A stretch of 64,000 nt of DNA from Patescibacteria group bacterium (GCA_028717685.1 JAQUNI010000001.1:399451-463450), one strand, 5' to 3'. Positions 23,880 through 58,640 are shown, numbered from the stretch's first letter. The notes: generated by a model from the sequence alone, not told the origin. Translations and numbers: made by a program.

Positions 23880-23913
23880 TATACAATTTTAAAACTTAAA
23901 TAAAAAGATATCT

Positions 23914-24636: not shown

Positions 24637-24642
24637 TACCTG

Positions 24643-25834: not shown

Positions 25835-25980
25835 AGTGAAAAGTTGAATTCAAAGTTTAAAGTTTCTTTTGCAAAGCGATTGCTTCGCAATAATTTTGCA
25901 CTTTGAACCGCCCACCCGCAACGCTTTGCTTGCATGGCGGGCGCGGCAACTTTGAATTTTGAACCTTGAATTTTGCACTA
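25812..25980. repeat. AT-rich palindromic element, family E copy with GC core (CGCCCACCCGCAACGC...GCATGGCGGGCGCGG)
   Basis: Arms AAAGTTCAAAGTGCAAAGTG ... CACTTTGAACC / CAACTTTGAATTTTGAACC. Confidence 0.7.
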
Positions 25981-25981
25981 A

Positions 25982-27202: not shown

Positions 27203-27206
27203 AATG

Positions 27207-27347
27207 GAGAATTTTCAATTTCTAATTTTTAATTTTTATTAAATTTATAATTAACTAATTTTTAAACTTGTGTCAATCAGGAGGTAAGGGTTTGAAAATT
27301 AACTCATTAAAAATTTAATAGAAATTAGAAATTGAAAATTAGAAATT
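27207..27347. repeat. AT-rich palindromic intergenic element, family A copy
   Basis: Same arms as 10907-11044. Sits between pilB and pilC. Confidence 0.8.
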
Positions 27348-29100
27348 ACTCTTTGGTTACCCTCAACACCTCTTCCAGGGTTGTCACGCCCATCTTGGCT
27401 TTGTAAAACCCGTCTTCAATCATCCTCGTCATTCCCTCACTGATGGCTTGCTTTTCAATTTCTTCCGTGGGCGCCCGCTTTGTCGCTAAACTCTGAATAG
27501 CCTCGCTGACTTCCAAAACCTCAAAAATTCCTAAACGTCCTTTATAACCAGTGTTATTGCATTGGGCGCAGCCCCGTCCACGGTAGAATAATAAAGAATC
27601 CGGGGTGATCTTGCTGGACACGATAGCCCCTTCGCGGACCATAATCTCTAAGATTTTCTTCAGATTCACCTCACTCTCCAAATTCTGCCAAGCCGCGCGA
27701 TCAAGATGGAAACTTTCAATACAATTACTGCAAATCTTGCGCACCAATCTCTGGGCGATGATCACATTTAAGGTGGAAGCAAGAAGAAACGGCTCAATCT
27801 TCATGTCAATCAGGCGGGGAATCGCCCCAGCGGCGTTGTTCGTATGCAAAGTGGACAATACCAAATGACCAGTGAGAGAAGAATGAATCGCCATTTCCGC
27901 GGTCTCGCTGTCACGAATCTCTCCCACCATAATAATATCTGGATCTTGCCGGAGGAGCGACCTTAGGCCATTGGCAAAAGTATAACCGATTTTGGGCGCC
28001 ACCTGGCTCTGATTAATGCGGGGCATATGGTATTCAATGGGATCTTCAATGGTGCAAATATTCACCTCGGGAGTATTGAGAATGTTTAGAATACTGTAAA
28101 GCGTGGTAGTTTTACCCGATCCCGTGGGACCCGTAGAAAGAATCATGCCGTGAGGCCGATTGATATTTAATTTGACAATCTTTAAAGCATTGAGACGCAA
28201 ACCCATTTCTTCCATAGTGAACGGCTTGGCGGATTCAAAAAGGAGACGCATTACAATCTTCTCTCCATTAAAAACAGGAATTACGGAAACACGGAAAGAA
28301 ATTTTATATTCCTCATTTTCAATCTTAAACCGCCCATCTTGAGGCAGGCGATGTTCATCAATTTTGAGGTCAGAAAGCACTTTAATCCGCGCCACCACCC
28401 CTGCCAAGATCTTTTTGGGCAGACTCATCACATCCCTTAAAACCCCATCCACCCTATAGCGCACCACAATTTCTCCCTCTAAAGGTTCAATGTGAATATC
28501 AGAAGCGTTCTCGTAGATGGCATATTCCAAAAGCGTGTCCACGATTTTGACTACGGGCAGCTCTTTGGCCATTTTTCTTAAATCCTCGGCGTCTTCTGGC
28601 TCCCGAATGCCTTGTTTGTCAATAATTTCGGAGAATTCTGTTTTCAGGCTCTTGCGATACTGCTTTAAAACTTCACTGATACTGGTAGGTGTCGTCAGAA
28701 AAACCTCAATCTTCATTCCTGTCTTCTTCTCCATAAATTCAATGGTTTGCAAATCCGTGGGGTCTACCATCGCCAGTTTTAATTTCTCTTTGTCTTTCTC
28801 AAAAGCCACTACCTGATAGTTGCGCGCGATCGGCTCGGGAATGGAAAGAAGAACCTCCTTGGGAATTTTTTTCTTCTCAAGATTAACATAAGGAACCTTG
28901 GATGTTTCCGCATAATGTTCTGCTAATACCTCTTCGCTAACCATTCCTTGTTTAACCAGTTCGGCGGCTAAAGTCACCTTATCCTGCTTTGCTTGAAGGC
29001 TGGCCGCGCGAATTTTCTCCGCCGTCACTAAATTATTCTCGGTTAAAATTTTAATCAGTTCTTCGTCTTTGAAAAACATTGAAATAGAGTCAAAGCGCAA
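27346..29100 (-). CDS. pilB: type IV pilus assembly ATPase PilB (GspE family)
   Basis: GSPII_E N-domain, Walker A GPTGSGKTTT, Asp and His boxes, and a tetracysteine motif (CSNC...CAQC). Confidence 0.9.
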   Translation of the reverse strand: MRFDSISMFFKDEELIKILTENNLVTAEKIRAASLQAKQDKVTLAAELVKQGMVSEEVLAEHYAETSKVPYVNLEKKKIPKEVLLSIPEPIARNYQVVAFEKDKEKLKLAMVDPTDLQTIEFMEKKTGMKIEVFLTTPTSISEVLKQYRKSLKTEFSEIIDKQGIREPEDAEDLRKMAKELPVVKIVDTLLEYAIYENASDIHIEPLEGEIVVRYRVDGVLRDVMSLPKKILAGVVARIKVLSDLKIDEHRLPQDGRFKIENEEYKISFRVSVIPVFNGEKIVMRLLFESAKPFTMEEMGLRLNALKIVKLNINRPHGMILSTGPTGSGKTTTLYSILNILNTPEVNICTIEDPIEYHMPRINQSQVAPKIGYTFANGLRSLLRQDPDIIMVGEIRDSETAEMAIHSSLTGHLVLSTLHTNNAAGAIPRLIDMKIEPFLLASTLNVIIAQRLVRKICSNCIESFHLDRAAWQNLESEVNLKKILEIMVREGAIVSSKITPDSLLFYRGRGCAQCNNTGYKGRLGIFEVLEVSEAIQSLATKRAPTEEIEKQAISEGMTRMIEDGFYKAKMGVTTLEEVLRVTKE

Positions 29101-35278: not shown

Positions 35279-36070
35279 TCACATCTTCACTACTCTTTGA
35301 ATCCGCTCAATTCTGCCTGACCGTCCGGTTTTACTGTCAATTTCGCAAATAATCGCATTCACCGATACATCTCCCTCCGCGACCTCAAAACAAACAGGCA
35401 TTTGAGTGAGGAAATTAGCAATTACTAAATCCTTATCCACACCGATCACGGAATCGCGCGCGCCCACCATGCCAATATCGGTAATGTAGGCTGTGCCCTT
35501 GGGAAGAATGCGCTCATCCGCCGTCTGAATGTGGGTATGCGTACCCGCGACAAGAGACACCCTACCGTCCAGATACCAACCCAAAGCCATTGCTTCGCTT
35601 GTCGCTTCCGCGTGAAAATCCACTAGAATGATTTTGATTTTTTTTTCTTTCAATTCCTCTAAAATTTCATCCGCGCAACGGAAGGGGCAATCAAAATCTT
35701 CATTAAAAAAAACACGTCCCACCAGATTCACGACGGCAATCTTTTTGGTTCCAATTTCCATTATCTTGAAACCTCGCCCCGGCGCGCCCGGGGGATAATT
35801 GGCGGGCCTTAAAAGATCACTGTCTTTTTCGATTAAAATCTCGTGAGCCTGCTTTTGACTAAAAACGTGGTTTCCGGAAGTAAAAATCTCTATCCCAGAT
35901 TCGCGCAAAACACTTAAAGTTGCCCGCGTAACCCCTTTGCCGTGGGCTAAATTTTCACAATTAGCTAAAATTAAATCAGGCTCATAAGCCTTCTTTAGTT
36001 CAGGTAAAATTTTTTTGACTGCCAGGCGACCCGGACGACCGACAATATCGCCAAAAAAAAGAATGGTCAT
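35279..36070 (-). CDS. ymdB: YmdB-family metallophosphoesterase (TIGR00282)
   Basis: MTILFFGDIVGRPGR...ANCENLAHGKG...GNHVF. Positioned directly after rny. Confidence 0.85.
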   Translation of the reverse strand: MTILFFGDIVGRPGRLAVKKILPELKKAYEPDLILANCENLAHGKGVTRATLSVLRESGIEIFTSGNHVFSQKQAHEILIEKDSDLLRPANYPPGAPGRGFKIMEIGTKKIAVVNLVGRVFFNEDFDCPFRCADEILEELKEKKIKIILVDFHAEATSEAMALGWYLDGRVSLVAGTHTHIQTADERILPKGTAYITDIGMVGARDSVIGVDKDLVIANFLTQMPVCFEVAEGDVSVNAIICEIDSKTGRSGRIERIQRVVKM

Positions 36071-36135
36071 GAATAATAGTAATCAGTAATTAGTAATCGG
36101 TAATTGGTAATTAGTAATTGGTAACTTATAACTAA
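36066..36135. repeat. AT-rich palindromic element, family C copy
   Basis: AGTAATCAGTAATTAGTAATCGGTAATTGGTAATTAGTAATTGGTAAC. Confidence 0.65.
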
Positions 36136-36177
36136 TTAATCTAAATCACCATTTCCAATTATGAGCCGCGAGTTACC

Positions 36178-37698
36178 CTACCTTGCGTACTCCACCGACC
36201 TTGTCTCACGGATCACCGAGACCTTAATTTCTCCCGGATACTTTAACTCTTCTTCAATTTTAGCCGCAATCTCGTGAGACAATTTGACCGCTGCCAGGTC
36301 ATCAATCTTCTCCGGCGTCACGAAGACACGGATTTCGCGTCCGGCTTGGATGGCATAGCTCTTCTCCACTCCTTCAAAACTATTCGCTACCGCCTCCAAG
36401 TCTTCCAAACGATTTAAATAGTCTTCATAAGTATCCTTCCGCGCGCCCACCCGCGCTCCTGAAATGGCGTCCGCGGTCGTGACGATTAAAGCCTCGGAAG
36501 AACTATGGGGCACATCTTCATGATGCGACTCCATAGCCTGAATAATCTTCTCATCAATACTAAACTTTTTTAAAATACTCTTACCAATTTCAATATGCGT
36601 GCCTTTAATTTCGTGATCCACTGCCTTGCCAATATCATGTAAAAGTCCGGCTTTCTTCGCGAGAGCTGAATCCATTCCCAATTCTTCCGCTAAAAGACGA
36701 GCAAGGTGCGAAACCTCTAGAGAATGCTGCAACACATTTTGACCATAGCTAGTCCTGTATTTTAAACGACCTAAAAGCTGAACTAATTGCGGGGGCAAAC
36801 CCGCCACCCCCGCGTCATAACAGGCTGTTTCGCCCGCTTCCTTCATATCTTGGGCAATCTCTTTCTTGGCTTCCACGATTGTTTCCTCAATCCGAGCCGG
36901 GTGGATGCGACCATCAGCAATTAACTTTTCCAGAGTGCGCTTGGCGACCTGACGGCGAATCGGCGAAAAGCCGGAAATTACAATCGTTTCGGGCGTATCG
37001 TCAACAATAATCTCCACACCAATCAATTTCTCAATAGTATTAATATTGCGACCTTCGCGTCCAATAATCCGCCCTTTCATGTCGTCAGAGGGCAAGGAAA
37101 GAGTGGTAGATGTGGATTCTGCCGCGTGCGAAGAAGCGCACCTCTGAATCGCCAAAGACAAGATTTCTTTTGCCTTGCGACTGACCTCTTCCTGCTCTGT
37201 TTGTTCCAATTTTTTGATTCTTTGAAGCAATCGCTCTTTCATTCCTTCCTCTGTCATCTCCAAGAGCACATTTTTAGCTTCTTCCAGCGACAAATTCGCC
37301 ACTTTCTCTAATGTAGCCAGCTGTTTTCGCTTGAGCTGAATGATTTCCCGTTTCGCCTCCCGAATTTGATTTCTTTCTTTTTCTAAATATCTTTGATTTT
37401 TATCTAAATTGCCCAGCCTTTGGTCTAAAAGCTCCTCCCTTTGCACAAGCCTCCGCTCCAAGACCAAAATACTCTGCCTGCGTTCTTTATCTTCGCGTTT
37501 GGTCTCTTCCGTGTATTTGAAGGCTTGATCTTTAGCGGCTAAAAGGATCTCCTTAGCCTTTGTTTTAGCTTCTTCTAGCGCCTTTTGAGAACGCGCTTCG
37601 CTGGAATCCTGACGTCTTTGCGCTAAAACTTTGCGCAAAAAGTAACCCCCCGCTAAGCCCAAAATAGCGGCGAGAGGGAAAATGATAATATTGAACAT
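36178..37698 (-). CDS. rny: ribonuclease Y
   Basis: N-terminal TM helix, coiled coil, KH domain (GRIIGREGRNINTIEKLIG) and HD domain (HSLEVSHLARLLA...LLHDIGK). The start was chosen at MFNIIIFPL. Confidence 0.9.
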   Translation of the reverse strand: MFNIIIFPLAAILGLAGGYFLRKVLAQRRQDSSEARSQKALEEAKTKAKEILLAAKDQAFKYTEETKREDKERRQSILVLERRLVQREELLDQRLGNLDKNQRYLEKERNQIREAKREIIQLKRKQLATLEKVANLSLEEAKNVLLEMTEEGMKERLLQRIKKLEQTEQEEVSRKAKEILSLAIQRCASSHAAESTSTTLSLPSDDMKGRIIGREGRNINTIEKLIGVEIIVDDTPETIVISGFSPIRRQVAKRTLEKLIADGRIHPARIEETIVEAKKEIAQDMKEAGETACYDAGVAGLPPQLVQLLGRLKYRTSYGQNVLQHSLEVSHLARLLAEELGMDSALAKKAGLLHDIGKAVDHEIKGTHIEIGKSILKKFSIDEKIIQAMESHHEDVPHSSSEALIVTTADAISGARVGARKDTYEDYLNRLEDLEAVANSFEGVEKSYAIQAGREIRVFVTPEKIDDLAAVKLSHEIAAKIEEELKYPGEIKVSVIRETRSVEYAR

Positions 37699-37838
37699 TG
37701 TTTTTAGACATTGATAATCGGGAAACAGCTTGAAATAAATTTGGTATTCACTTTTAAATTGATGCAAAGGGGATTAATTTCAACGCTATTTTCATTATCA
37801 TATTATTATCTTAGATAAGTTTAAGTTTAACACGGATT

Positions 37839-39520: not shown

Positions 39521-39768
39521 AGGTTAAAATTTCTAATTTCTAATTTTTCTGGCTTCGCCAGATCTCGCATAGCGAGACAATTTTTATTAAATTTTTAATA
39601 AAATAATTTCTAAACTTTAAGAATGAATTGCCTAGCCGCCAGTTAGGCTAGCGGGAATAGCTTTTCCATTATAAATGGTAAATGAGTTACGAGAATTTGA
39701 TCTTTATTTGTTTAAAAATTAAGTAAATAGAAATTTAATAAAAATTAGAAATTGAAAATTAAAAATTA
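39521..39768. repeat. composite intergenic element: family A arms enclosing a CTGGCTTCGCCAGATCTCGCATAGCGAGAC module and other hairpins
   Basis: Family A arms at both ends. The inner module is shared with 62925-62990. Contains GCCTAGCCGCCAGTTAGGCTAGCGG hairpins. Confidence 0.65.
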
Positions 39769-40732
39769 CTTAAAAACACTCCAAGATTTGTTTGAGAGTC
39801 TAAGAGTTAATCAAGCCGTTGGCAAAATAGCAATTTTAGGGGTATTATTTGCCGCTATTTTTTTGTCTTTTTCCGTCTCTCGCGCCCAAAACACCGCTCC
39901 CGAACGGACAATCACAATCATTGACAACGGCCTTTATTTCCAGGTTAAAACAGAGAAAAATTTAGTTTCGGAAATCCTGGTTGATTTGGACCTATCCTTA
40001 AATCCTGAAGATAGAATTTATCCCAGCCTAAACGAAGAAGCCCTCTGGCGCATTATCATTGAAAGGGCAACCCCAATCACAATCCTTGCTGATGGAAAGG
40101 CAAAATCTCTTGTTACCTTTGCTAAAACCGCGGGGGCGGCATTAGAAGAAGCCCAAATCACATTGAATCCTGATGATGAAGTGAATTATGCTGCGGACAC
40201 GTCCCTTTTTTCCAATATGGAGATTGTAGTGACCAGAATCAAACTTGGCACTGTCACCAAAGATGTGTCCATACCATTCCAAACTGTGAATAAAAAAGAC
40301 GACACGCTGCTCTGGGGAAAATTCAAAATCGCCCAGGAAGGAAAAACAGGGCTCAAAGAACAGGTATATAAAGTAATCTATAAAAACGGCGAAGAAGCAA
40401 AACGGATTTTGGAAAAAGAAACCATTTTGCAAAAACCTCAAGATAAGATTATCCTGGAGGGAACAAAAATAGTGCTAGGGGAGGCGAATTACGGCATCGC
40501 CAGCTTCTACCGCTATGGCGATAAATTGACTTGCGCGTCCACGCGTTTTCCCATGGGAACACCCTTGCGGGTCACGAACACGGCAAACGGACAAGCGGTA
40601 ATTGTAACCGTGAATGATTATGGCCCTTTTGTGCTGGGACGGATTGTGGATTTAAACATACCGGCATTTGAAAAAATCGCGCCCCTCGGAACAGGATTGG
40701 CAAGAGTGAAGGTGGAGGAAATAATAGATTGA
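39752..40732 (+). CDS. RlpA-like (double-psi beta-barrel) domain protein with N-terminal DUF348/G5-like region
   Basis: C-terminal ...IASFYRYGDKLTCASTRFPMGTPLRVTNTANGQAVIVTVNDYGPF, the RlpA/3D DPBB. TTG start in the ORF track, and the start is uncertain. Confidence 0.7.
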   Translation: MKIKNYLKTLQDLFESLRVNQAVGKIAILGVLFAAIFLSFSVSRAQNTAPERTITIIDNGLYFQVKTEKNLVSEILVDLDLSLNPEDRIYPSLNEEALWRIIIERATPITILADGKAKSLVTFAKTAGAALEEAQITLNPDDEVNYAADTSLFSNMEIVVTRIKLGTVTKDVSIPFQTVNKKDDTLLWGKFKIAQEGKTGLKEQVYKVIYKNGEEAKRILEKETILQKPQDKIILEGTKIVLGEANYGIASFYRYGDKLTCASTRFPMGTPLRVTNTANGQAVIVTVNDYGPFVLGRIVDLNIPAFEKIAPLGTGLARVKVEEIID

Positions 40733-44681: not shown

Positions 44682-47600
44682 ATGGTAAAAAATACGGAAG
44701 GCGAGGGGGAAGAAGCGCCTTTAGAAAAAGATAAGGGGCGAAAAAAAAGAAGAGAGGTAAAAAATAAACACAAAAACAAATCAGAGCCCTTGGACCCTGA
44801 CGAGGAAAAAGATATTCCAGAGGAAACGGAGAAAAAGAAAGGAATTACCCCCGATAAAGTGCGGGCGATTTTAGATAATTTAGGGCGAGAATTGCCTCCG
44901 GAAAAATTGGAAATCATGACAAAGGGAGGAAAGGAAATTACGGTGCGCTTTCATCCTGATCTCGCGGAAAATAATTTTCCGGGTTTAATTTCCAAATTAG
45001 AAACCGAGAAGGGCGTTAAAATCATTCCTAAATGGGATGATGGAGTGGACATGGAAAAGGGGTTTGTGATTGTGTCCGAAACAGTCCCTGAAAAGCCAGA
45101 AACGGCTTTAGAACCAGCGGAGCAAGAGCTCCCACCCCCTCCATCTCCCCCTCTGGCAGGGGGAGAGCCACTCCCACCCCCTCCAAATACAGAAAAAGAG
45201 CAAAAGACCCCAGACGGGAACACCCCCGAAAAAAGCGCTAGCGAACCAGAGGAAAAAGGCAATGGAGAGCCACTCCCACCCCCTCTTGCCTCCCCGCTCG
45301 AGGCAGGGGGAGAAGAATCTCTTTTAGAAGAGATCAAATCTAAACAAGAAGAAACCGAGCCTAAACAGAAAGAGGTAAAGATTGAGGAGGTTATTTTGGA
45401 AAAAACGGCGGCAAAGACCGAGACAGAAAAAAAAACAGAAAAAAAAGAAATCCCGCCGCGGGTTCAAGAAGTTTTAGACCGCTTAAACGCGGAGTTGGAA
45501 AAGCATAACGATGTAGAGGAAGTTAATGTTGTTTTTAATTATAAACTGGCAAATAGCCCCCTGGGTGCAGATATTAAAAAGCTCCGACCCCAAAGCTACA
45601 AAAAAATTCAAATAATCAACTATTGGAAAGAAAAAGGGGGCGTTTTTCCTCTTGGTTTTATAATTGAAGAAATAAAAAAGGGGAAATCCGAAGAAAAAGA
45701 AGCAACCCCCGAAAAAAAACCCGAGGAAAAGCCGCTCCCACCCCCTCTTGCCTCCCCGCTCGAGGCAGGGGGAGAAGAATCTCTTTTAAAAGAAATCAAA
45801 TCTAAACAAGAAAAGACCAAGCCCCCACAAAAAACAGAAGAAAAGAATGTCCCTCCGAAAGAAGAAAAAAAAGAAACAGAAATTCCTCAAAATGTGGAAG
45901 TATTACTTTCACTCTTAGATTCAAAAATAGCCGAATTTCAAACAGCCCATCCAGAAGTAAAAGACATTGACATTCTTTTTAGCGAGGAACTTATAAAAAA
46001 ACTGGGGGTAGAATATGGCGATGAAAAACAACAAGCAATCTGGCAAAAGATTGACTCCATCAAAGAAAAAGGATTCAATGTGCTAAATCGTATTTTTGAA
46101 GACAAGAAGATACCCGAAGAAGAGGCGGTAAGGATTGAGAAGGTTGTTTTGAAAAAAGCAGGGGCAGAGACCAAAACAAAAAGAAAAATAACCCCCACGG
46201 AAAAAGGCGAGATAAAGGAAGAGCCTTCCCGGGAAAAAACCACTCCCACCCCCTTTAACTCCCCCTCCCTCCTTCGTCCGCCAGAGGCGGACTTCGGCGG
46301 GCAAGCAGGCAGGGGGAGCGCCACAGAAAAACCGCGAGAACCAATATTCGCGGCGCGGAAAACAGAGGATAAAACGAAAGGACCCAGAGCAGATGAGGAG
46401 AAGCAGAAACCGGGCAAAGTGGCGCGAGAGGCAGAGACCCTAATGGAAATACAACCCTCTCCATCCCGCGTGTCAGAAGAACGGCTTACTGAAAAGCGCA
46501 AAGAATATTTAGAAGCCAAAAGACTGCGCGGCAAATTTATTGGCCGCGGCGAATTTAAAGGCAAAGAGGGAGAAGCGAAACTTGCTCAAATCGGTGAAGA
46601 ATATAGCAAAATGCGCGCTGAATACATTCGCGGCAAAGCGTCAGAAGTATTGAAAGAACAGAAGCTGCCCGCGACGGAATTGAAAACAAAGGTCGTGGAA
46701 AAGCTTCTGGAAGAATACAACAAAGAGGACGGGGAACGGGAAAAATTGATTGTGGGCAGGGAAAAAGGCTTAGGGCAGAGGTTTAAAGAATGGTGGCGCC
46801 GCCATCCTAAAGCGCGAATGCTCGTTGGTTATGGCTTAACCGGCGCTTCGGTAGGGAGTATGCTTTCAGGGCAGCTCTGGCTGACTCCTTGGCTTATCGG
46901 CGCCCGAGCCGCTTTTGCAGGGACGGGCGCGGCTCTAGGCACCGAAGGGATGTTATCCCGCTATTCTAAAACCTTAGGCGAAAAAGGGCTTGTGAATGAG
47001 TTAGTTAAATTTAACAAAGAAGAAAAGGCTAAGCTCAAAAAAATCAAAGACAAAGGAGAACAGGAAAAAGCGCGCCAAAAAATGATTAACGATAACATTG
47101 CTAAAATCTCGCCCGAGAATTTAGCGCGCGAAATGGGGCGCGTCAAAGCCCTGCAAGAGAAAAAGGGGGTAAAACTAGAGAAGATAGGACCATACGGCGC
47201 AGTGCTTTCGGCTCTCCGGGCGCGGGAGCAAGAGCTTTTAAAGAAACGGATAACAGAAGCAATGGAAAAAGGAGAAAAGACTAAAGAAGATTTGCTTTTT
47301 GAAGCTATAAACTCCGGTTTGGAAAGAGAAGCAAGGGAAATGGACGAAAATGTAGAAAAGGCGGGAGAGGCGGAAAGAAAAAAGGCAATCAAAAGGTGGG
47401 TCTTCAGCAGTAGCGCCGGAGCAATCACAGCCGGACTCACCGCTTGGTGGGGATTTCACAGGCTTGGAGAAATTTCAGGCAAGGGAAAAATAGCAGGGAG
47501 CGCGGCTCACGCAAAAACGGCTCTGGGTCCGCCAGCGCCAGAGGGGTTGGCAAAAAATTTTGAGGTTGTTGCCGCCAAGGGCGACTCGGTCTGGAAAATG

Positions 47601-48449
47601 GCAAAGCGCGCTTTGGCGGAAAAATATGGCAGCCGCTTTACCAATCTTGACGAAGCGCGCCGCACTTATGTCATTGACGCCGTAAAAGATAAAATCGCGA
47701 AAAACCCCGCGCGTTTTGGTCTAATTGATATAGACAGGGTAAAAATTGGCCAAAAAATAGATTTTGGCGGATTAATAAATAATAAGAGTTTAATGGAAGA
47801 AACCTTTGGCAAAGCGGGACGTCTAACGGGAGAACAAGCAAAGAATATTTTAATCAATAATGAGACAGTGCAAGAATTTCACCATCTCCATCCGGAAATT
47901 CGGTTGGACAGCGAAAATATAGATTCAATTTTGGCAGGCAGAGGGAGAGAAATCCTGGGAACGGAACCCGCGGCGGCGCAGACAGATATCAGCGCGCCAG
48001 AAATTGCTCCCGAAGAAACCCCGAGCTTGGAAGAAAGCGCGATTCCTACTGAAACTGAAGCTGCAAAAACAGAAACGCCGCAGATAGAAGAGACGCAAAG
48101 TCCAAAGACGGAAACCCCTTCTCCGGAAGTTGCTCCAGAGCAAGATATATCCGAAGCAATGATTCAAGAAATTCCCGACTGGACTCCGGAAAAGATTGCC
48201 AAGACCACTCTGCCCTTGATTCAAAAAAATCCAAAACTGAATACGGTCAAGGGAATTTTAGAACATTATCTAGCTAATCTAAAAAACGGCGAGATTTTTT
48301 TACCCGAGCAAGAACAAGCCAATACTGCTATCAAAGAAATAACTAAAAGAACCGAGGGACTCGGAGAGAGCGTGGCGGAAAGATACGAAAAAATCCTGTT
48401 GGAAAACACCAAAGTTTTCATAGGCATTGCCACGATGGGGAGAGAATAG
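44682..48449 (+). CDS. giant Lys/Glu-rich repeat protein with central TM segment and C-terminal LysM-like motif
   Basis: 1255 aa. The repeat PPPLASPLEAGGEESLL(E/K)EIKSKQE occurs at least three times, each copy encoded by a GC-rich family R element. A hydrophobic region lies at 46795-46960. LysM-like GDSVWKMAKRA...IGQKIDF near the C-terminus. Confidence 0.7.
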   Translation: MVKNTEGEGEEAPLEKDKGRKKRREVKNKHKNKSEPLDPDEEKDIPEETEKKKGITPDKVRAILDNLGRELPPEKLEIMTKGGKEITVRFHPDLAENNFPGLISKLETEKGVKIIPKWDDGVDMEKGFVIVSETVPEKPETALEPAEQELPPPPSPPLAGGEPLPPPPNTEKEQKTPDGNTPEKSASEPEEKGNGEPLPPPLASPLEAGGEESLLEEIKSKQEETEPKQKEVKIEEVILEKTAAKTETEKKTEKKEIPPRVQEVLDRLNAELEKHNDVEEVNVVFNYKLANSPLGADIKKLRPQSYKKIQIINYWKEKGGVFPLGFIIEEIKKGKSEEKEATPEKKPEEKPLPPPLASPLEAGGEESLLKEIKSKQEKTKPPQKTEEKNVPPKEEKKETEIPQNVEVLLSLLDSKIAEFQTAHPEVKDIDILFSEELIKKLGVEYGDEKQQAIWQKIDSIKEKGFNVLNRIFEDKKIPEEEAVRIEKVVLKKAGAETKTKRKITPTEKGEIKEEPSREKTTPTPFNSPSLLRPPEADFGGQAGRGSATEKPREPIFAARKTEDKTKGPRADEEKQKPGKVAREAETLMEIQPSPSRVSEERLTEKRKEYLEAKRLRGKFIGRGEFKGKEGEAKLAQIGEEYSKMRAEYIRGKASEVLKEQKLPATELKTKVVEKLLEEYNKEDGEREKLIVGREKGLGQRFKEWWRRHPKARMLVGYGLTGASVGSMLSGQLWLTPWLIGARAAFAGTGAALGTEGMLSRYSKTLGEKGLVNELVKFNKEEKAKLKKIKDKGEQEKARQKMINDNIAKISPENLAREMGRVKALQEKKGVKLEKIGPYGAVLSALRAREQELLKKRITEAMEKGEKTKEDLLFEAINSGLEREAREMDENVEKAGEAERKKAIKRWVFSSSAGAITAGLTAWWGFHRLGEISGKGKIAGSAAHAKTALGPPAPEGLAKNFEVVAAKGDSVWKMAKRALAEKYGSRFTNLDEARRTYVIDAVKDKIAKNPARFGLIDIDRVKIGQKIDFGGLINNKSLMEETFGKAGRLTGEQAKNILINNETVQEFHHLHPEIRLDSENIDSILAGRGREILGTEPAAAQTDISAPEIAPEETPSLEESAIPTETEAAKTETPQIEETQSPKTETPSPEVAPEQDISEAMIQEIPDWTPEKIAKTTLPLIQKNPKLNTVKGILEHYLANLKNGEIFLPEQEQANTAIKEITKRTEGLGESVAERYEKILLENTKVFIGIATMGRE
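45129..45165 (+). repeat. family R GC-rich repeat copy inserted in-frame in CDS 44682-48449
   Basis: CTCCCACCCCCTCCATCTCCCCCTCTGGCAGGGGGAG. Further in-frame copies at 45271-45312 and 45735-45774, and a degenerate one at 46243-46320. Confidence 0.8.
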
Positions 48450-50804: not shown

Positions 50805-51049
50805 TTTCATTCTCCTTTTATAATTTCACGCAACTAAAATTAACCTAGAAACACAAACACTCAAACTTTCTTTTAAAAACACGCCTCCTTCCTTTAAATT
50901 GCCATAAAATTTTGAAACCAATTTACAAAGAACAAATTCCCGTTTTTCAGGAATTCACGCTTCAAGCGCTCTAAAACCAAAGATTACCGATAAAGCCGAG
51001 GTTTTTAAAAGGCTGAAGCCTAAATTCCCAAGCTGAATTTTAACACTTA

Positions 51050-51078
51050 TTTATAGCATATCTGAAAAACTTTGTCAA
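51050..51078 (-). promoter_or_regulatory. sigma70-type promoter (minus strand) TTGACA-17-TATAAA driving 50804-48726 operon via about 240-nt leader
   Basis: The minus strand reads CCTTGACAAAGTTTTTCAGATATGCTATAAATAAG. The TTGACA-n-TTTTCAGATAT segment recurs at 51426-51450 on the plus strand. Confidence 0.55.
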
Positions 51079-51164
51079 GGATTTTTACCTGAAAATCCAA
51101 AGTAATCCAGATTTTGGCTAAAATAAGGCACAAATGGAATAGGGAATTAGGAATCATGAATCAG

Positions 51165-51360
51165 GGATAGACCCCCTCCCCGCCCGCCATCGCTTCGCTC
51201 AGGCGAGGCGGGCGGGCACCTCCCCCTTCCGCCCAAGGCGGACAGGCAGGGCAGGGGGGAGTGAGAATCTTCCCCTCCTTGGAAGAAAGGAGGGGATAAT
51301 AAATCCTCCCCTCAACCCGTGGGAGGTTTTTTAAAAAGGGGTCTCTAATAATTCTGCGGA
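51165..51360. repeat. composite GC-rich repeat island (modules GCCCGCCATCGCTTCGCTCAGGCGAGGCGGGCGGGC; CCCCTCCTTGGAAGAAAGGAGGGGATAAT)
   Basis: Shares modules with 48455-48660 and 58330-58640. Confidence 0.7.
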
Positions 51361-51368
51361 ACGATCCT

Positions 51369-51396
51369 ATACAGGGGCTTGACAGATTTTTTAAAC
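51369..51396 (+). promoter_or_regulatory. sigma70-type promoter TTGACA-16-TAAAAT upstream of long leader/non-coding region preceding secreted operon
   Basis: CTTGACAGATTTTTTAAACCTGCTAAAATC. A second TTGACAGATTTTCAGATAT copy lies at 51426. Confidence 0.5.
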
Positions 51397-52033
51397 CTGC
51401 TAAAATCATTTTTTAGATAAAAAGCCTAAAAAATCTTGACAGATTTTCAGATATAGTGCTAAGCTTAAAATCGGGATAAATAAAACAGCAAGAAATATCA
51501 AGAAGTAAGGAGGGCTCTTGTAGCTCTTTTTAAAATTCAGAAGTAACGCCCGCCCAAGTTTTGCAAAGCAAAATTTAAGCGGGAATGCATAGACAATGGA
51601 TTATTTGAAATAAGAGTAGTCCACTGTCTGTTCATTAACAAAAATATTTTTTCGCGCTATGGCAGATGCCTTTGTCGTATCCCTCCGCGTGGCTACTATG
51701 GAGGCAAGAAGCAAAGAGCATCTGCCATAGCCTTTATCGTCTCACAAGTGTAGTTTCTTAAAGTCTAGGTCGTGCCTGACATTGAGGAGTGAGCCCTAGC
51801 AACAACCAAAGATGGTTTTGTAGGTGCAGATCACAAATCAACGAAGGCGCGAGTATAGCCGCTTTCAATTCCTAGCCATTATAGAAAGCGGCTATACCCC
51901 TTAATCTTCAGAAAGGAGGGAGAAAAAAGGGGCTTAGTGTTCCGTTCGGTTAGTAAATAATGTATCTAAATGATCTAAAGGTTCGAAAAAAGTTGGCATC
52001 TAATTAAGAGAGCCAAAAAGAGGAGAAATTGAA

Positions 52034-52750
52034 ATGAGAAAGATACTGATTTCTATGTTCGTTCTGGTTTGTATGATGGCATTCACTGGTATAGCTCTGG
52101 CTAGTAATACTGCTTCGTGGACGTTCGATATTAAAGTACAGGTGCAACCTTGGATCCAGAAAAACTCCGGTAATCCTAGCTTAATGAAGATGGCGGATCT
52201 GGAGCAGGATAAGGATAAAACGGAAACCACTTTCGGGTGGTATGAAAGTTTTTATAGCAACGTTCCGTTCACGAAGACATTCACAGGAACTAATCCAGCC
52301 GGTGATGCTTATCCAATTTTTGCACGTGAAGAAAGAGCGGTAGGTGGAGCTGGACTAGGAACTTATGATAGACTTTCCACACGTATAACATTTGAAACAG
52401 TGGTCAACGGAATACTGGGAGGAGAAGTAGGACGAGACGATCAAAGTGCGGTGTTTAATGCAGGAACCCAGAATAGTGCAGGCGTACCCGCGGGTACAGG
52501 TTGGACGCAAGGCGGCTTTGATCCTAATGTTTATTCAAACCCCAATGCTTCTATAACTTTCGGCACTCCGCACGATGGCGAAGTTTGGGAGAAGTTCTTT
52601 GTTAAGGCGGATAGAAAAATGCCAGATTATGCCACTGATAATGCATGGTATCAATCAGCGGATGCTGGTATTTATGCATTAACAATCACCGAAACCTTAG
52701 TTGGTCAAAATACAGTGCAGTCATCGGATGCTTACGAGGTCTTCCCATAA
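52034..52750 (+). CDS. secreted protein A (signal peptide; Gly/Thr/Asn-rich; C-terminal DAGIY..T.T motif)
   Basis: AAGAGGAG SD. Signal peptide MRKILISMFVLVCMMAFTGIALA. Shares the motif W..SADAGIYALTITETLVGQ with the next gene. Confidence 0.65.
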   Translation: MRKILISMFVLVCMMAFTGIALASNTASWTFDIKVQVQPWIQKNSGNPSLMKMADLEQDKDKTETTFGWYESFYSNVPFTKTFTGTNPAGDAYPIFAREERAVGGAGLGTYDRLSTRITFETVVNGILGGEVGRDDQSAVFNAGTQNSAGVPAGTGWTQGGFDPNVYSNPNASITFGTPHDGEVWEKFFVKADRKMPDYATDNAWYQSADAGIYALTITETLVGQNTVQSSDAYEVFP

Positions 52751-52991: not shown

Positions 52992-53867
52992 ATGCAAAGG
53001 CAAAAAATCTGGACAAGCGCTATGGTTTTTACTGTTCTACTAGCAGTAGCAGCTTCTTTGGTCTTCGCTTTTGTGGAGATTAAAGAGCAAACTAATCTAA
53101 ACGGCGTTATCAGCGAGCCGGGAAACACCGCCTCAATGCGGAAAGGCAAGACACTCTTGGTAGAAAGCAATCAGGATGTCAAAATCGCTTTTTCCACTAC
53201 AGGAGACATTAAAAGGGAGGAACGAGGTTCAGATGGCAAGGGTTTGAACCGTTTTGATGAAATCAAAAAAACAACGGTCAAGCTGGGGATTTCCGGAGAA
53301 AACGACTATGAGTGGCAAGGCAATCTGGAAGATCTGAATGGCTTAACAACCGACACTATTACCCCAGACCAAGATGATAGAATCTGGTGGAATTTGAAAG
53401 TTAAGGCGAAAACAAGTTTGTTGAGCTTTGATAAGGATAAGGAGTGGGACGCATCCTTGGATGCGGGAATTTATCAAACAAGTATCACTATCACCGTAAT
53501 CACAGTGGGGCAACCGCCGCGTCCATCTTTGGAATTTATTCCTGATGTCGCGGAAGGCGGATCGTCATTATTCTGCGTGGAAATCCACAATAGTGGAACC
53601 GAAAAGAAAGACAGCGCGGAAAATGTCCGAGTCAGAATGAGAGTTTTAAACGGCGCGAAGTATGTTAAGGCACTGGATTATAACCCCAAGATTGGTAATA
53701 TTGAAAGCGAAGAGAGTAAAGGTTTCTTGTTTACTATCATCACTAATACCAAGTGGGACAGTGCGCCTCTGGACACAGAAATTAAGGTGGAAATAGAAAT
53801 TGTCCGAGAGGACAACTGGCCCGAACACAATGAAGGCAAGATCGCCTATTATAGCTTGGTGAAATAA
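52992..53867 (+). CDS. secreted protein B, partial paralog of A
   Basis: GGGAGAAGGGAGG SD. Signal anchor. Motif WDASLDAGIYQTSITITVITVGQ. Confidence 0.65.
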   Translation: MQRQKIWTSAMVFTVLLAVAASLVFAFVEIKEQTNLNGVISEPGNTASMRKGKTLLVESNQDVKIAFSTTGDIKREERGSDGKGLNRFDEIKKTTVKLGISGENDYEWQGNLEDLNGLTTDTITPDQDDRIWWNLKVKAKTSLLSFDKDKEWDASLDAGIYQTSITITVITVGQPPRPSLEFIPDVAEGGSSLFCVEIHNSGTEKKDSAENVRVRMRVLNGAKYVKALDYNPKIGNIESEESKGFLFTIITNTKWDSAPLDTEIKVEIEIVREDNWPEHNEGKIAYYSLVK

Positions 53868-53879: not shown

Positions 53880-55235
53880 ATGAAAAGGTTTGTGACGTTT
53901 AGTATTGGATTCTTTTTAGTGTTGGTCTTCAGTGGTAATATTCTCGCGGAAAAGGTGGGACCGCCGCGAATTTACATCACCGTCCATAAAGGCAAAGCCG
54001 AGACTGCTATTCTCTCTTTGCAGGGAGTGGTACTGAATGAAAAGGTCTTCCTTTACCTCTGCGACATCACTGTTGACCGCAAAGGCAACTACAGCTTTGA
54101 AAATCTAAAGGGGTGGAAATATTCCGCCTTGGACTGGGTAAAACTTTATAAGCTCTCTGTCGCGGAGGAAAAAGTTATAGAAGACCCAAATCATCCCATA
54201 ATTATTACTTCTCCAGCCCAAGAAGAAGCAAGATTACCTAAGAAACGAGTGGTAGCTTACTTTCCTTATGAAGAAAAAGACGTTCTCTCTTTAAGAAAGG
54301 AAGCGATCACCTATATGGGGATCAAAGTGCAGGTTCCATTTGATGTGAAACCCGGGCAATATTACGCGGGAATAATGTCGGAACCGGTTGATTTCCAAAC
54401 GCTTAGGGGGATCGTGGACGGCAAAGCTATTCAAGTTCAAAAGAAGACTCGGATCGCTATCCCTGTAATTATTACTGTCCCGGGCGGGGTAGTGAAAAAA
54501 ACAGGCAAGATTGCGACAGATCCAGAAACTTCTTTACCTGTGCTTCACGCAGATGTACAGCAGAAAGAGATTAGAATTTCCGCCACTTTTGAAAACACAG
54601 GGAACATAATAGAATACGCCAAAGGGGAAGCGCGGATTGTCGGTAAAATAGACGGCAGAACCTATGCGGTTGTGCCGATGAAAGCATTAAACCCTTCATC
54701 GGTTGATGGCGCGGGAGAAATTTTTCCGGAAACATTAAGAGACTTTGAAGGCATTGTTTCACGACCTCTGCCTGCGGGAGATTATAAGGTAAAATTGGCA
54801 ATCAACTATGGCGTCAAATTTCGGGAAGCGAGGGCTGAAGCCGAAATCACTGTTTCCGAAGCTGTCGCCCAAAGCCAAAAAGATCTCTTGATGCTGGCGG
54901 TGGAGCCTGCTTTTTTAAATTTACGGATAAAACCAGGACAAACCACGATGGAAAGCATAGAGTTAACGAATTTGGATTATCAGCCCCTTTCAATAAAAGC
55001 GGCGATTGTGCCTGAAGGATTGTCTTGGCTACAGATTAACCGGAGCGACAAAATAGAAGTTGATCTGCTTGCCAACCAGATGAAAAAGATTGTTTGCAGA
55101 ATAAGCGTGCCCCGGGACGAAAAAACGGGAGAAGCGCAAGTAAAAAGAGCAAAAATTATACTTGTGCCTGAAAGAGGTAAAACAGTGTCCATAGATGTAG
55201 AAATCGTTCCTGGTTCAGGAACAAAAGGTGATTGA
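53880..55235 (+). CDS. secreted beta-rich protein C
   Basis: TAAGGAGGTGG SD. Signal peptide MKRFVTFSIGFFLVLVFSGNILA. Beta-strand-rich repeats. Confidence 0.65.
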   Translation: MKRFVTFSIGFFLVLVFSGNILAEKVGPPRIYITVHKGKAETAILSLQGVVLNEKVFLYLCDITVDRKGNYSFENLKGWKYSALDWVKLYKLSVAEEKVIEDPNHPIIITSPAQEEARLPKKRVVAYFPYEEKDVLSLRKEAITYMGIKVQVPFDVKPGQYYAGIMSEPVDFQTLRGIVDGKAIQVQKKTRIAIPVIITVPGGVVKKTGKIATDPETSLPVLHADVQQKEIRISATFENTGNIIEYAKGEARIVGKIDGRTYAVVPMKALNPSSVDGAGEIFPETLRDFEGIVSRPLPAGDYKVKLAINYGVKFREARAEAEITVSEAVAQSQKDLLMLAVEPAFLNLRIKPGQTTMESIELTNLDYQPLSIKAAIVPEGLSWLQINRSDKIEVDLLANQMKKIVCRISVPRDEKTGEAQVKRAKIILVPERGKTVSIDVEIVPGSGTKGD

Positions 55236-55254
55236 AACCAAGGAGATGGGTAAG

Positions 55255-57126
55255 ATGATGGTCAAGAAGAGTTTATTGATAGCAATGTTTATTAGTTTAT
55301 GTATTCTAATAATGGCTGCTGCGGAAGAACAAGTCGTAATTGACCCTGGTCCGACAGTTGCAACCGGGATTACATTGGGAAATACACCAATCGTCCCGAA
55401 ACTAGATTATGTGGAAACAGAAATCCGAACCATAAGTCAAGAATTGAGTGCGGCTACTGGTATCCAAATCCTTGTGGATCAAAATGTAGAAGGGACAGTC
55501 ACGATTGGCCCTCTGGAACAAGTTCCCTTGGAAACAGCGTTAGATCTAATCTGCGCTTCGGGGGGTTTGGAATGGGTAAAAGCAAAAAATTATTATTTAA
55601 TTCTTATGCCGGACCCAGATAATATGGCTTTCAAATCGCATGTAGTAACTGAAGGGGTAAAAATCAACAACCTGGATGCCAGAAGCATACCCGACCTACT
55701 CAAACAGTACGACTTTTACTTAAAAGTAGACCCGCTTAATAACCAGATCTTTATTACGGCTCTGCCTGGTTCAATGATGAACAGGATAAAAGGGGCGATT
55801 GAGAGAGTGGACACAGCCGTGCTTAAAGAAGTGGAAATCCGTCTGGTTACTTTGGAGTATTCTCGGCGCGATAAGGAAGAGATTGGCTTGGATAGTCTTA
55901 ACGCACTCCTCACCGAAGATGCGGCAAAAAGAGATATCTACGGCATTCAAATCGGCGAGAATACATTCGGCGCCACAAATGCCGAGATAGCACCATTACT
56001 CCGACTAAAAATCTTAGCAAGCCGAGAGGAAATCAAAATCACGGGCGATCAGAAAGCGACCGTTCGTGAAGGTAAAATTGCCAAAATCAACTTTAGTAAA
56101 AAAGGCGATATCTTCCTGACAACTGGGATCGGGGGGGTTGCTAATAATAACTTTTACAATTTGGAAAAGGCAACCGTGCAGGCAGAGCAAGGCGTAGAGA
56201 CAGAAATCCTGCGGGTTACTTCTGATAATCACATCCTTATAAATGTAAAAGGCATTTTGGAATACATTCAAGAGACACCTGATGCGATAAAGACCGGTCA
56301 AGCCATCTGGACTGAAAGCGGCAAGGTGGATACTCAAGTAAATATGCAAAACTACAGGACAATCTGGATTGGCACTTTACGTCGCGAAGTAAACAAGCAA
56401 ACACGGGAAATAACTGGGAGAGGTAAGGATAACCGAGAGATTGAAATCGCTTTCCTTTTGACTGCAAATGTCGTTGGCACAAAACCACCTGCCCCTCTAG
56501 AGATAGAGGCGAAGATTGAAAAATTCTTTGCTGCAAAAGAAAAAGGCACAATACACCCTCAATTCTCGTTTGGTGTTGGCGGTTGGGTGCAAAGAGCTGA
56601 AGATGCTTGGATTCCTTCCAGAGATTCTGTTGATCCTATTCCAATAGGAGAGATAAAAGTGAAACTCTGGGAAAACCTCAATATATTTGGCGGTGGTGGC
56701 GCAAAAGGGAAAAAGAACCTCGGATATTTCGGTGTTCAGTATGGCGACTTTCTAACCATCGGTGCTGGGGGAATTAAAACCAATCAGTTATCAAGCGTTA
56801 AGCCGTTTCTAACTACTGGTGTGTCTTTAGGCACTGATCGTGTAAGGTTAAATATAGAAGCTGTCTATCTTCCTGACGCCCCCAAACAAAGCGGCATTAA
56901 AGCTGGAATCAACTTCCGTTTCGGGGGATTTGCTACTAAACAAGTTTCTCAAGCCACAGAAAACGCAGAGGTGGAGCCAGTTGCAGAAGCTCCGATTGCC
57001 AAAGGGGCGACCCAGATCATTGAAAAGGAAAAAATAATAGAGAAAGAAATTCTTGTGCCCTTGGCTGATCCCGAAGAATGGAATAAAGCCATTGAACGGG
57101 GCAAACAAGAACAAGAAGTAAAGTGA
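55255..57126 (+). CDS. STN/secretin-like N-domain protein with degenerate secretin-like core and C-terminal Gly-rich beta domain
   Basis: IRTISQELSAATGIQILVDQNVEGTVTIGPLEQVPLETALDLICASGGLEWVKAKNYYLI matches the STN (secretin/TonB N-terminal) pattern. A later stretch ...NYRTIWIGTLRREV...REIEIAFLLTANVV resembles the secretin C-domain. N-terminal TM/signal. The start is ambiguous (55228, 55246 or 55255). Confidence 0.55.
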   Translation: MMVKKSLLIAMFISLCILIMAAAEEQVVIDPGPTVATGITLGNTPIVPKLDYVETEIRTISQELSAATGIQILVDQNVEGTVTIGPLEQVPLETALDLICASGGLEWVKAKNYYLILMPDPDNMAFKSHVVTEGVKINNLDARSIPDLLKQYDFYLKVDPLNNQIFITALPGSMMNRIKGAIERVDTAVLKEVEIRLVTLEYSRRDKEEIGLDSLNALLTEDAAKRDIYGIQIGENTFGATNAEIAPLLRLKILASREEIKITGDQKATVREGKIAKINFSKKGDIFLTTGIGGVANNNFYNLEKATVQAEQGVETEILRVTSDNHILINVKGILEYIQETPDAIKTGQAIWTESGKVDTQVNMQNYRTIWIGTLRREVNKQTREITGRGKDNREIEIAFLLTANVVGTKPPAPLEIEAKIEKFFAAKEKGTIHPQFSFGVGGWVQRAEDAWIPSRDSVDPIPIGEIKVKLWENLNIFGGGGAKGKKNLGYFGVQYGDFLTIGAGGIKTNQLSSVKPFLTTGVSLGTDRVRLNIEAVYLPDAPKQSGIKAGINFRFGGFATKQVSQATENAEVEPVAEAPIAKGATQIIEKEKIIEKEILVPLADPEEWNKAIERGKQEQEVK

Positions 57127-57199: not shown

Positions 57200-58228
57200 A
57201 TGAGAACAGTCAGGGTGATTGTCGTTATTGTAATAATACTTTTACTAGCCGGCGGAGGAGTATATCTCTTCTGGCCTAAGACCTCTGAAACGAATACTTT
57301 GGATCAGGAGCTAGCAGATTTAAAGGCTGCAAACGCCACTCTGGTCACGGAAAAGACTGAAACCGCAAATAAAATTTCCGAACTGGAGAAGGCAAAAAAA
57401 AGCCTGACCGAGGCTAATACCACATTAACCAGTCAGGTTGCAAATCTAGCTGGCGATCGTGATGCAATAAAGCAAAGCGAACTTTACTTTGCCAAGGTCT
57501 ACCGCGAAGGACTAGCTGTAAACGAAAAAGCCAATAAAGATAATGGAGTATTACGCAAAGAAATTGAACGGCTTAAAGCGGAAAATAAACAGCTAGTGGA
57601 GGACAATAAACTCCTGCAAACTCAATATAATGAACTCCTCACAGAAAAGAAAGCAGCCGAGGCAGCGAGAAAAGTTGCGGAAGATAAAGTGGCTGGTCTA
57701 AACAGAGATATTGACGCCGCAAAGCAAGGACAAGATGCCGCGGAAATGAAAGCAGTAAAAGCCGAACAGAATCTTACGAGGCTAGAAGCGGAAAAGGCAA
57801 AAGCGCAAAGCGAAATGGTGACCTTGAACGCTAAAATCGCTAACGATTTGGTGGATAAAAAGGCGCTTCAAGATCAGCTTGACACTGCCAAAAAGGCGCT
57901 GGAGGCGATGGAAGGACGGCTGGGAGAGTCTGACAAATTAGTCGCTAAATCACCGACGATGGATACGGTAAAGGAAAACTTGGCTCTAAAAGCCGAAATT
58001 AGATTCCTTTATGCGACAATCCTCGTGGCTACCTCATCCGAGAAGAATCTCTCGGACGAAAGCAGAAGAAAGGCGACTAACCTGATGGTTAGGTTGACCT
58101 ACCAATCAGACGCGGATCTGCGCTTTAAAGCGGCTGCCAAAGTTATGGAAGAAATGCCACTAGATGGCGCCGAAAGCGTTGACCAGCTCCACACACGTTG
58201 GGGAGCCTGGAGAAAAACGCAAGAATAA
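57200..58228 (+). CDS. membrane-anchored long coiled-coil protein
   Basis: GAAAGGATGG SD. N-terminal TM helix VIVVIVIILLLAGGGVYLF. About 280 aa of Ala/Lys/Glu coiled coil. Confidence 0.6.
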   Translation: MRTVRVIVVIVIILLLAGGGVYLFWPKTSETNTLDQELADLKAANATLVTEKTETANKISELEKAKKSLTEANTTLTSQVANLAGDRDAIKQSELYFAKVYREGLAVNEKANKDNGVLRKEIERLKAENKQLVEDNKLLQTQYNELLTEKKAAEAARKVAEDKVAGLNRDIDAAKQGQDAAEMKAVKAEQNLTRLEAEKAKAQSEMVTLNAKIANDLVDKKALQDQLDTAKKALEAMEGRLGESDKLVAKSPTMDTVKENLALKAEIRFLYATILVATSSEKNLSDESRRKATNLMVRLTYQSDADLRFKAAAKVMEEMPLDGAESVDQLHTRWGAWRKTQE

Positions 58229-58329: not shown

Positions 58330-58640
58330 GGAGAAATGAAAAGTGAAACCCCCTAAATCCCCTTTATCAGGGGGATTTTAATTTCTTCCTTCTGTGACCC
58401 ACGCGCTCTAGGAGAGAGTTGTTGGCTCCATAGTGGCGTTAGCCCTATGGAGTCAGGATGCAAGCCGTAAAGAAAAAATATGATCAGACTTTAATGCTGT
58501 TTCGCATTGCGGCTCCACAGCCTGCCCGCCATCGCTTGCGCTTCAGGCGTTAGCGGGCGGGCCCCTCGCTTCGCTCGGGGACTATGGAGCCAACAGACCC
58601 CCTCCAACTCCCCCTTGGTAAGGGGGAGTGAAATCAAGCC
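58330..58640. repeat. composite GC-rich repeat island with 14-nt outer inverted arms GTTGGCTCCATAGT / ACTATGGAGCCAAC enclosing about 146 nt
   Basis: Arms at 58421-58434 and 58581-58594. Inner modules CCTGCCCGCCATCGCTTGCGCTTCAGGCGTTAGCGGGCGGGC. Flanked by hairpins CCCCTTTATCAGGGGG and CTCCCCCTTGGTAAGGGGGAG. Confidence 0.7.

Follow-up and report, generated by a model that had tools for sequence, protein, structure and literature searches.

Introduction

The amphipathic helical loop is the most conserved region of secretins and is seen in all solved secretin structures (PMC6532946). No secretin of the PilQ or GspD type was found in the Patescibacteria analysed, which was taken as consistent with a Gram-positive-like envelope (PMC6744442, PMC7143001, PMC9166423), and the lack of secretins, or of outer-membrane components more broadly, has been taken to fit the view that Patescibacteria are without an outer membrane (PMC6744442, PMC7143001, PMC9166423, PMC12102498). 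WxLIP, a protein family that also bears on what follows, is the DUF916-DUF3324 protein of the WxL surface clusters of Gram-positive bacteria (Firmicutes) (PMC10599100). Here we describe a 632-amino-acid (aa) protein encoded in a 64,000-nucleotide (nt) stretch of a Patescibacteria group bacterium contig (the whole stretch is called the window below). The protein, which we call the window secretin, represents a secretin subfamily in which both the architecture and the set of partner genes are new: it has lost the motif that we take for the helical loop, carries a predicted OmpA-like beta-barrel at its C-terminal side, and is encoded at the end of a conserved module of four genes. An earlier reading made from the DNA alone (the sequence-only reading) had singled out this gene as a secretin-like protein in a lineage that otherwise looks monoderm.

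Results

The window protein is a divergent secretin

Matches of the window secretin itself to secretin families lie below the family cut-offs. The N0 family of GspD (PF21305) matches residues 59-106 with 25.8 bits against a cut-off of 27 (expectation value, E, 9e-6), the GspD model TIGR02517 matches residues 59-231 with 31.6 bits against 351.35, and the PilQ model TIGR02515 matches residues 59-125 only, with 29.3 bits against 284.35. The PilQ N0 structure 4ar0 matches with E 4.5e-5, and the best N0 matches are PilQ structures. The profile check suggested with the sequence-only reading came out negative for the protein itself, with no match to PF00263 at E<=1 and none to PF07660 (STN). As these two families are silent, the case rests on the relatives of the protein and on a structure model.

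PF07660 scores above its cut-off in relatives P0008 and P0009. Four full-length relatives at 44-47% identity match PF00263 with 26.8-32.3 bits, three of them above the cut-off of 27.5 (P0005, at 26.8 bits, is the sole relative under it), and more distant members reach 37.8 and 54.1 bits, so that relatives overall span 26.8-54.1 bits at 23-47% identity. The four closest full-length relatives also match PF03958 and PF21305; PF03958 reaches 29.3 bits in relatives against a cut-off of 28.2, which is passed by P0003, P0004 and P0008. In the closest relatives the PF00263 match ends at about profile position 130 of 169. A family profile (A2) made from 31 sequences, more distant canonical-type secretins included, picks up annotated GspD, PilQ and MshL with E of 1e-30 to 1e-48.

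The AlphaFold2 model of the window secretin has a mean predicted local distance difference test score (pLDDT) of 79.9, and a Foldseek search of the PDB with it gives secretins as the first 38 matches (InvG, PilQ, PulD/GspD, BfpB and pIV; probability 1.0, E to 1.7e-13). Separate matches to the N0-N1 structures of InvG/MxiD likewise have a probability of 1.0. Together, the N0, GspD and PilQ matches of the protein itself, the PF00263 scores of its relatives, the A2 profile and the Foldseek matches establish homology with the secretin superfamily at the level of sequence profiles and predicted fold. The N0/STN pattern pointed out in the sequence-only reading is borne out by PF21305, TIGR02517, TIGR02515, 4ar0 and InvG/MxiD, and the suggested AlphaFold check recovers both the secretin and the N0 fold; the lack of an N0 fold, together with that of any STN or Secretin match, had been named as the outcome that would speak against that reading, and the fold is present. 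A repurposed STN domain, a further idea in that reading, is improbable, as the protein keeps its secretin core in full. An orthologue of PilQ or GspD is ruled out by the equivalog scores and the gene context.

The ORF (open reading frame) of the window secretin is genuine. It starts with GTG and matches NCBI MDD5626822.1 (locus tag PHW01_02305) at 100%; this record belongs to a contig of 722,217 bp, to which NCBI gives the label "Patescibacteria group bacterium". A chance ORF is ruled out by full-length relatives and by 1327 profile matches in a representative library; a separate profile search of genome contigs with the alignment of close relatives gave no matches. GC content, GC content at third codon positions (GC3) and codon usage of the ORF are all within the range of the window, which leaves a chimeric assembly or recent transfer unsupported. 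An origin from filamentous-phage pIV or a prophage was also rejected, as no secretin relatives were found in the viral contigs searched and no phage genes lie nearby. Signal-peptide cleavage, read from the sequence, would probably fall after AAA and before EE, and relatives have a site at the equivalent position (ALA followed by QE).

A conserved secretin motif is deleted from the core

The window secretin and canonical secretins can be aligned block by block through the core. YRTIWIGTL pairs with the canonical (E/G)T(I/V)V(I/L)GGL block (e.g. ETIVIGGL), and canonical ELLIFITPRI pairs with the block EIEIAFLLTANVV of the window secretin, EIEIAFLLTANV being the counterpart of ELLIFITPRI in the canonical-secretin alignment. 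Between the YRTIWIGTL and ELLIFITPRI-like blocks, a motif of about 14 residues, VPxLGDIPxLGxLF, is cleanly deleted, with the deletion point at residues ~392 to 403. We take this motif to be the amphipathic helical loop by which secretins associate with the membrane. The sequence-only reading had compared a block in this region with the conserved end of the secretin C-domain; the two flanking blocks do align, and it is the motif between them that is gone. A motif scan of 153 relatives found VPxLGDIPxLGxLF missing in the whole close subfamily only, while most of the distant matches, many of them about 400 aa long, keep it. One canonical secretin with the motif retained (as VPFLSRIPILRSLF) is P0025, encoded in locus L008 at 10001-12292. 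The secretin-like reading is thus upheld by profile, family alignment and fold, and has to be amended in that the protein is not canonical: the motif is missing and a predicted OmpA-like barrel has been added.

An eight-strand OmpA-like domain is predicted after the core

The added domain follows a short helix after the secretin core and is modelled as eight beta-strands at residues ~446-565, with most 10-residue blocks from residue 451 onwards at a pLDDT of 84-94 (the blocks 441-450 and 461-470 are at 78 and 72). Foldseek matches it to the OmpA transmembrane domain (9fzc, E 7e-4; 2ge4, E 1.7e-3; both with probability 1.0). At the same time, the domain matched no Pfam family and no PDB profile, and hhalign comparison with OmpX and OmpA sequences was negative. 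A C-terminal aromatic signal is typical of outer-membrane proteins, and the end of the domain resembles such a signal: its last residues are RF in 13 of the 15 aligned domains (RL and SF in the other two). In the window secretin itself this end, GINFRF, is internal and followed by a 67-residue tail, which is absent from P0002-P0005; pLDDT is 38-40 over residues 571-610, with a helix at 615-631. The Gly-rich amphipathic beta region that the sequence-only reading had placed in the C-terminal 150 aa therefore holds for the eight strands and does not extend to the last 67 residues, which form a disordered acidic tail with a helix.

The eight-strand domain is a separable module found on other proteins, though on no other ORF of the window. 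In P0025 it follows a charged helical linker of about 100 residues, and P0025 closes a complete pilB-pilC-pilin-pilMN cluster in L008; directly before it, another gene encodes a protein of 264 aa that matches N0, STN and Secretin_N. The domain also ends P0039, a CsgG-like TPR protein, as well as P0043, P0107, P0110 and P0111, in which it is preceded by an N-terminal hydrophobic segment or anchor and a long coiled coil; such a layout is suggestive of an envelope tether. NCBI lists P0107 under Bathyarchaeota, but its contig is only 4.6 kb long and the protein is therefore probably mis-binned. Conversely, P0011 (L015, 444 aa) belongs to the motif-less subfamily, lacks the barrel and ends in a hydrophobic stretch, ILTLLIAGGIVAAVSN, which could be a C-terminal membrane helix.

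The secretin gene closes a conserved module of four genes

The window secretin is preceded on the same strand by genes for three proteins that all have signal peptides, as read from their sequences (Table 1). The last of these, of 451 aa, has a stop codon region overlapping the secretin start by 8 nt. Its AlphaFold model (pLDDT 77.6) consists of three beta-sandwich domains with no C-terminal helix, and among compact PDB matches the best are to WxLIP of Enterococcus faecium (9i1y and 9i25; TM-score 0.52-0.54 over ~320 columns, probability 1.0), so that Foldseek supports a DUF916-DUF3324 tandem immunoglobulin (Ig) fold. PF06030 scores 15.9 bits on this protein (cut-off 27.3), and relative P0187 has a recorded PF06030 match. 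A hidden Markov model of the 451-aa family finds the homologue in locus L019 with E 7e-69.

The two smaller proteins, of 238 and 291 aa, have a domain of about 200 aa in common, to which the longer one adds a C-terminal beta-rich domain (QPPRPSLEF...). The 238-aa protein is homologous to the first module genes in L002, and the 291-aa protein shares 48% identity with its positional counterpart in L001. A shared small-protein profile (A6), whose alignment takes in the small genes of L006 and L007 with the 238-aa protein, recovers both small genes of L019 at E 1e-18 to 1e-20. The family has the motifs YANxPF, AREE..G.G..D.L.T, PHNG and W..SADAG.Y, and searches of Pfam (at E<=1 for the 291-aa protein) and of PDB sequences gave no match for either protein.

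This arrangement recurs well beyond the window. In all 11 related loci whose neighbours were read, the secretin is directly preceded by a WxLIP-like homologue, and the module gene order is the same in L001-L007, L017 and L019-L022, while secretin identity falls from 47% to ~23%. We found no ATPase (T2SSE-type), platform or pilin gene beside the module in the window or in the Pfam tables of L001-L005 and L019-L022; L006, L007 and L017 were read as ORF lists only. The gene sits apart from the secretin-less pilus cluster, as the sequence-only reading had noted, and it does so as part of a module rather than as an orphan.

Two relatives, at 40% and 34% identity, are in two species-representative bins titled "uncultured Candidatus Saccharibacteria bacterium". 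The distant member P0019 (L019), on a 72-kb contig, lies about 8 kb from genes for TamB (138.6 bits), Omp85/BamA (153.7 bits) and Skp, and the host of that contig is a true diderm. The presence of the module beside BamA, TamB and Skp in a true diderm makes it an outer-membrane-type system, neither specific to Patescibacteria nor a monoderm invention.

Table 1. Features of the window discussed in the text, in window coordinates
Feature	Position	Strand	Basis
Atypical secretin, 632 aa	55228..57126	+	Profile, family alignment, structure model
Signal peptide, residues 1-33	55228..55326	+	Modelled hydrophobic helix 7-32; cleavage read from sequence
N0 domain, residues 55-126	55390..55605	+	PF21305, 4ar0, Foldseek InvG/MxiD, pLDDT >90
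N1 / Secretin_N-type domain, residues 140-194	55645..55809	+	TIGR02517 alignment, PF03958 in relatives, pLDDT 93-97
Secretin core, residues 199-418	55822..56481	+	PF00263 in relatives, alignment, Foldseek
Eight predicted beta-strands, OmpA-like barrel, residues 446-565, ends GINFRF	56563..56922	+	AlphaFold, Foldseek
Acidic disordered tail and terminal helix, residues 566-632	56923..57126	+	pLDDT; this ortholog only
Small secreted protein, 238 aa, first module gene, Sec-type signal peptide (sequence reading)	52034..52750	+	Family homology
Secreted protein, 291 aa, second module gene	52992..53867	+	Homology to L001 gene
WxLIP-like secreted protein, 451 aa, three beta-sandwich (Ig-like) domains	53880..55235	+	AlphaFold, Foldseek
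342-aa protein, N-terminal membrane anchor and coiled coil	57200..58228	+	Coiled-coil Pfam/NCBIfam matches only
Terminator-like hairpin, 10-bp stem then T-rich run, best + strand site after module	58355..58378	+	
Promoter-like site TTGACA, 16-nt spacer, TAAAAT, extended TG	51379..51406	+	11/12 consensus matches
Type IV pilus cluster: PilB, PilC, three N-methyl pilins, PilX-like 419 aa, PilM, PilN, two overlapping, unassigned small ORFs (216, 138 aa)	19838-29100	-	

The gene that follows the secretin, for a 342-aa protein, may be co-transcribed with the module; we found no terminator-like site between the two, and the gene is absent downstream of the secretin in L001-L005. Promoter-like sites are no commoner in the region than in shuffled sequence, and the site in Table 1 is therefore a lead only. 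Directly upstream of the module, 1.2 kb (50823-52033) contain no ORF of at least 100 aa, and Rfam gave no match there at the gathering threshold; the promoter-like site of Table 1, the region's best, falls within this stretch.

Two further observations concern the module contigs. L017 encodes, at 9508-10311 (- strand), a beta-rich ORF with the alternating hydrophobic/polar pattern typical of barrels and no Pfam match. Large radical-SAM genes lie near the module in L001-L004 (L001 11727-13214; L002 6910-8400), and the window has two radical-SAM paralogs at 13642-16853 (- strand); BLAST found no similarity between those of the window and those of L001-L004, so the association is probably coincidental.

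The window carries genes usual for Gram-positive-type lineages

The window contains ordinary chromosomal genes (ClpP, GyrA, ribosomal protein S1, TilS, FtsH, iPGM, SMC, NusB, RNase III, LspA and ComM). RNase Y and YmdB are encoded side by side at 35279-37767 (- strand), near a gene for a protein with G5, DUF348 and DPBB domains at 39752-40732 (+ strand), which we take to be RpfB-like. RNase Y, YmdB and an RpfB-like protein are gene content usual for Gram-positive-type lineages. No outer-membrane biogenesis gene, BamA/Omp85 included, was found among the window proteins scanned. The description of the lineage as monoderm-looking is thus supported by the NCBI label and by these three genes, on evidence confined to the 64-kb window.

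The type IV pilus cluster of the window is 25 kb from the secretin gene and on the opposite strand. None of the ten cluster ORFs scanned matches a secretin or PilP family, in agreement with the sequence-only reading that the cluster has no secretin within the window, and no PilP or AMIN domain was detected in scans of the secretin and the pilus-cluster ORFs.

Elsewhere in the window, at 44682-48449 (+ strand), a 1255-aa ORF rich in Glu, Lys and Pro has no Pfam match; it holds an internal duplicated stretch (EPLPPPLASPLEAGGEESLL.EIKSKQE) and coincides with the peak of AT skew in the window (0.34-0.37).

Discussion

A candidate barrel-anchored channel for co-encoded secreted proteins

Our preferred reading, which we hold to be about as likely as not, is that the window secretin is an outer-envelope channel, a divergent secretin anchored by a barrel, which serves the three Sec-exported proteins encoded with it and has no ATPase beside it. 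The secretin, with its signal peptide, N0, N1 and core, would itself be exported by the Sec pathway and, by analogy with all solved secretins, may oligomerise into a gated ring. The C-terminal barrel, as predicted by the model, would take the place of the helical loop as the anchor in an outer lipid layer. Production of the secretin is probably coupled translationally to that of the upstream 451-aa protein, given the overlap of the two genes. The channel might then export the two small beta-rich proteins and the WxLIP-like Ig-fold protein, or display them on the cell surface, by a logic that would be nearer to curli or chaperone-usher systems than to type II secretion or type IV pili.

Several points weigh against this proposal. 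The sequence of the window secretin falls under every Secretin and STN cut-off, and its AlphaFold2 model is that of a monomer. The barrel has no sequence similarity to any outer-membrane protein in Pfam or the PDB, and a soluble barrel is therefore possible. Synteny is what points to the partners as cargo, and an ATPase-driven partner might be encoded at another site, the pilus machine at 19.8-29.1 kb being one example. Finally, if the host lacks an outer membrane and BamA, there is no evident site for the barrel to anchor in.

This last point leads to what the protein might be doing in a Patescibacterium. One explanation, which we think unlikely, is an outer-membrane module, horizontally acquired or a relict, that has ceased to work as a channel in a monoderm host and perhaps serves as a wall or S-layer scaffold or an adhesin, or is being lost. 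The literature cited above treats Patescibacteria as having neither outer membrane nor secretins (PMC6744442, PMC7143001, PMC9166423, PMC12102498), the same module is present in a true diderm, and P0011 ends in a hydrophobic helix rather than a barrel, all of which would fit such a history. At the same time, the ORF is intact and its codon usage native, domains and synteny are conserved across 23-47% identity, and relatives occur in two more bins titled "Candidatus Saccharibacteria", all of which speaks against this explanation.

It is also conceivable, though improbable in our view, that the host is not monoderm at all, either because the contig is mislabelled or because it comes from a small-genome lineage with an outer membrane, in which case the secretin would be an ordinary diderm outer-membrane protein. 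The Sec signal peptide, the barrel with its C-terminal aromatic signature and the diderm relatives beside BamA, TamB and Skp all favour this, and the part inspected is 64 kb of 722 kb. Against this stand the NCBI label "Patescibacteria group bacterium", the Saccharibacteria titles of the nearest labelled relatives, and the window itself, with its RNase Y, YmdB, RpfB-like protein and secretin-less pilus cluster and with no outer-membrane gene found.

An orphan secretin that passes the type IV pilus of 19.8-29.1 kb through the outermost envelope layer, i.e. the missing PilQ, is similarly doubtful: the secretin-less cluster of the window, the PilQ structures among the best N0 matches and the canonical secretin P0025, which has the same C-terminal domain and closes a pil cluster in L008, all favour it, whereas in the eleven loci read the subfamily member follows a WxLIP-like gene and never a pil gene, the TIGR02515 score is 29.3 bits against a cut-off of 284, and no PilP or AMIN domain was detected.

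Returning to the barrel-anchored channel, we regard it as rather unlikely, taken as a separate claim, that some sublineage of Patescibacteria produces a machine of this outer-membrane type, a secretin anchored by an OmpA-like barrel, and puts it to use. If it does, some members would have kept or regained an outer lipid layer with beta-barrel proteins, or, as epibionts, would plant the channel in the outer membrane of their host to dock or feed, and the module would define a new secretin-based pathway of surface assembly that lacks an adjoining ATPase gene. The window secretin gene is intact and native in its codon usage, its product has an outer-membrane-style barrel in the model, and it lies on a 722-kb Patescibacteria contig; the argument from the absence of secretins here meets a concrete counter-example. 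Whatever the host, the subfamily widens the diversity of secretins, combining the loss of the helical loop with a predicted barrel anchor and no adjacent ATPase gene, and it ties a WxLIP-like Ig-fold protein, so far a feature of Gram-positive surfaces, to a putative outer-membrane channel.

Comparison with known systems

Canonical secretins (PF00263: GspD/PulD of type II secretion, PilQ of type IV pili, InvG/SctC of type III secretion and pIV of phage) have the same N0, N1, core and Sec signal peptide as the window secretin. In contrast to them, it is without VPxLGDIPxLGxLF, has the added eight-strand C-terminal barrel, shows no evident S-domain or pilotin, and is encoded with no adjoining genes for an inner-membrane ATPase, a platform or (pseudo)pilins. 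With the equivalog models of GspD and PilQ it scores only about a tenth of the cut-off.

The C-terminal domain resembles the OmpA and OmpX barrels in its eight predicted antiparallel strands of 9-12 residues each, in its alternating pattern rich in Gly and aromatic residues and in the ...RF end of the last strand in relatives. Unlike these barrels, it is fused to the end of a secretin and neither stands alone nor precedes a peptidoglycan-binding domain.

The partner set recalls WxL clusters in that the 451-aa protein matches WxLIP structures and two smaller secreted proteins are encoded just upstream. Unlike WxLIP, the 451-aa protein has a third Ig-like domain, no C-terminal transmembrane helix and a PF06030 score below the cut-off, and the small module proteins differ from WxL proteins in having no WxL profile match and, by alignment reading, no dual Trp-x-Leu motif. 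To our knowledge, WxL clusters contain no secretin.

In curli (CsgG/CsgE/CsgF) and chaperone-usher systems the channel is CsgG or an usher and not a secretin, and we found no homology of the small module proteins to curlin or pilin subunits, so that what follows is analogy only. As in those systems, Sec-exported subunits, an Ig-fold accessory protein and one putative outer channel are encoded together with no ATPase. The link to curli extends to P0039, the CsgG-like protein with the same C-terminal domain fused to it, and the link to chaperones to the Ig domains of the 451-aa protein, which give PapD/ASH-like fold matches.

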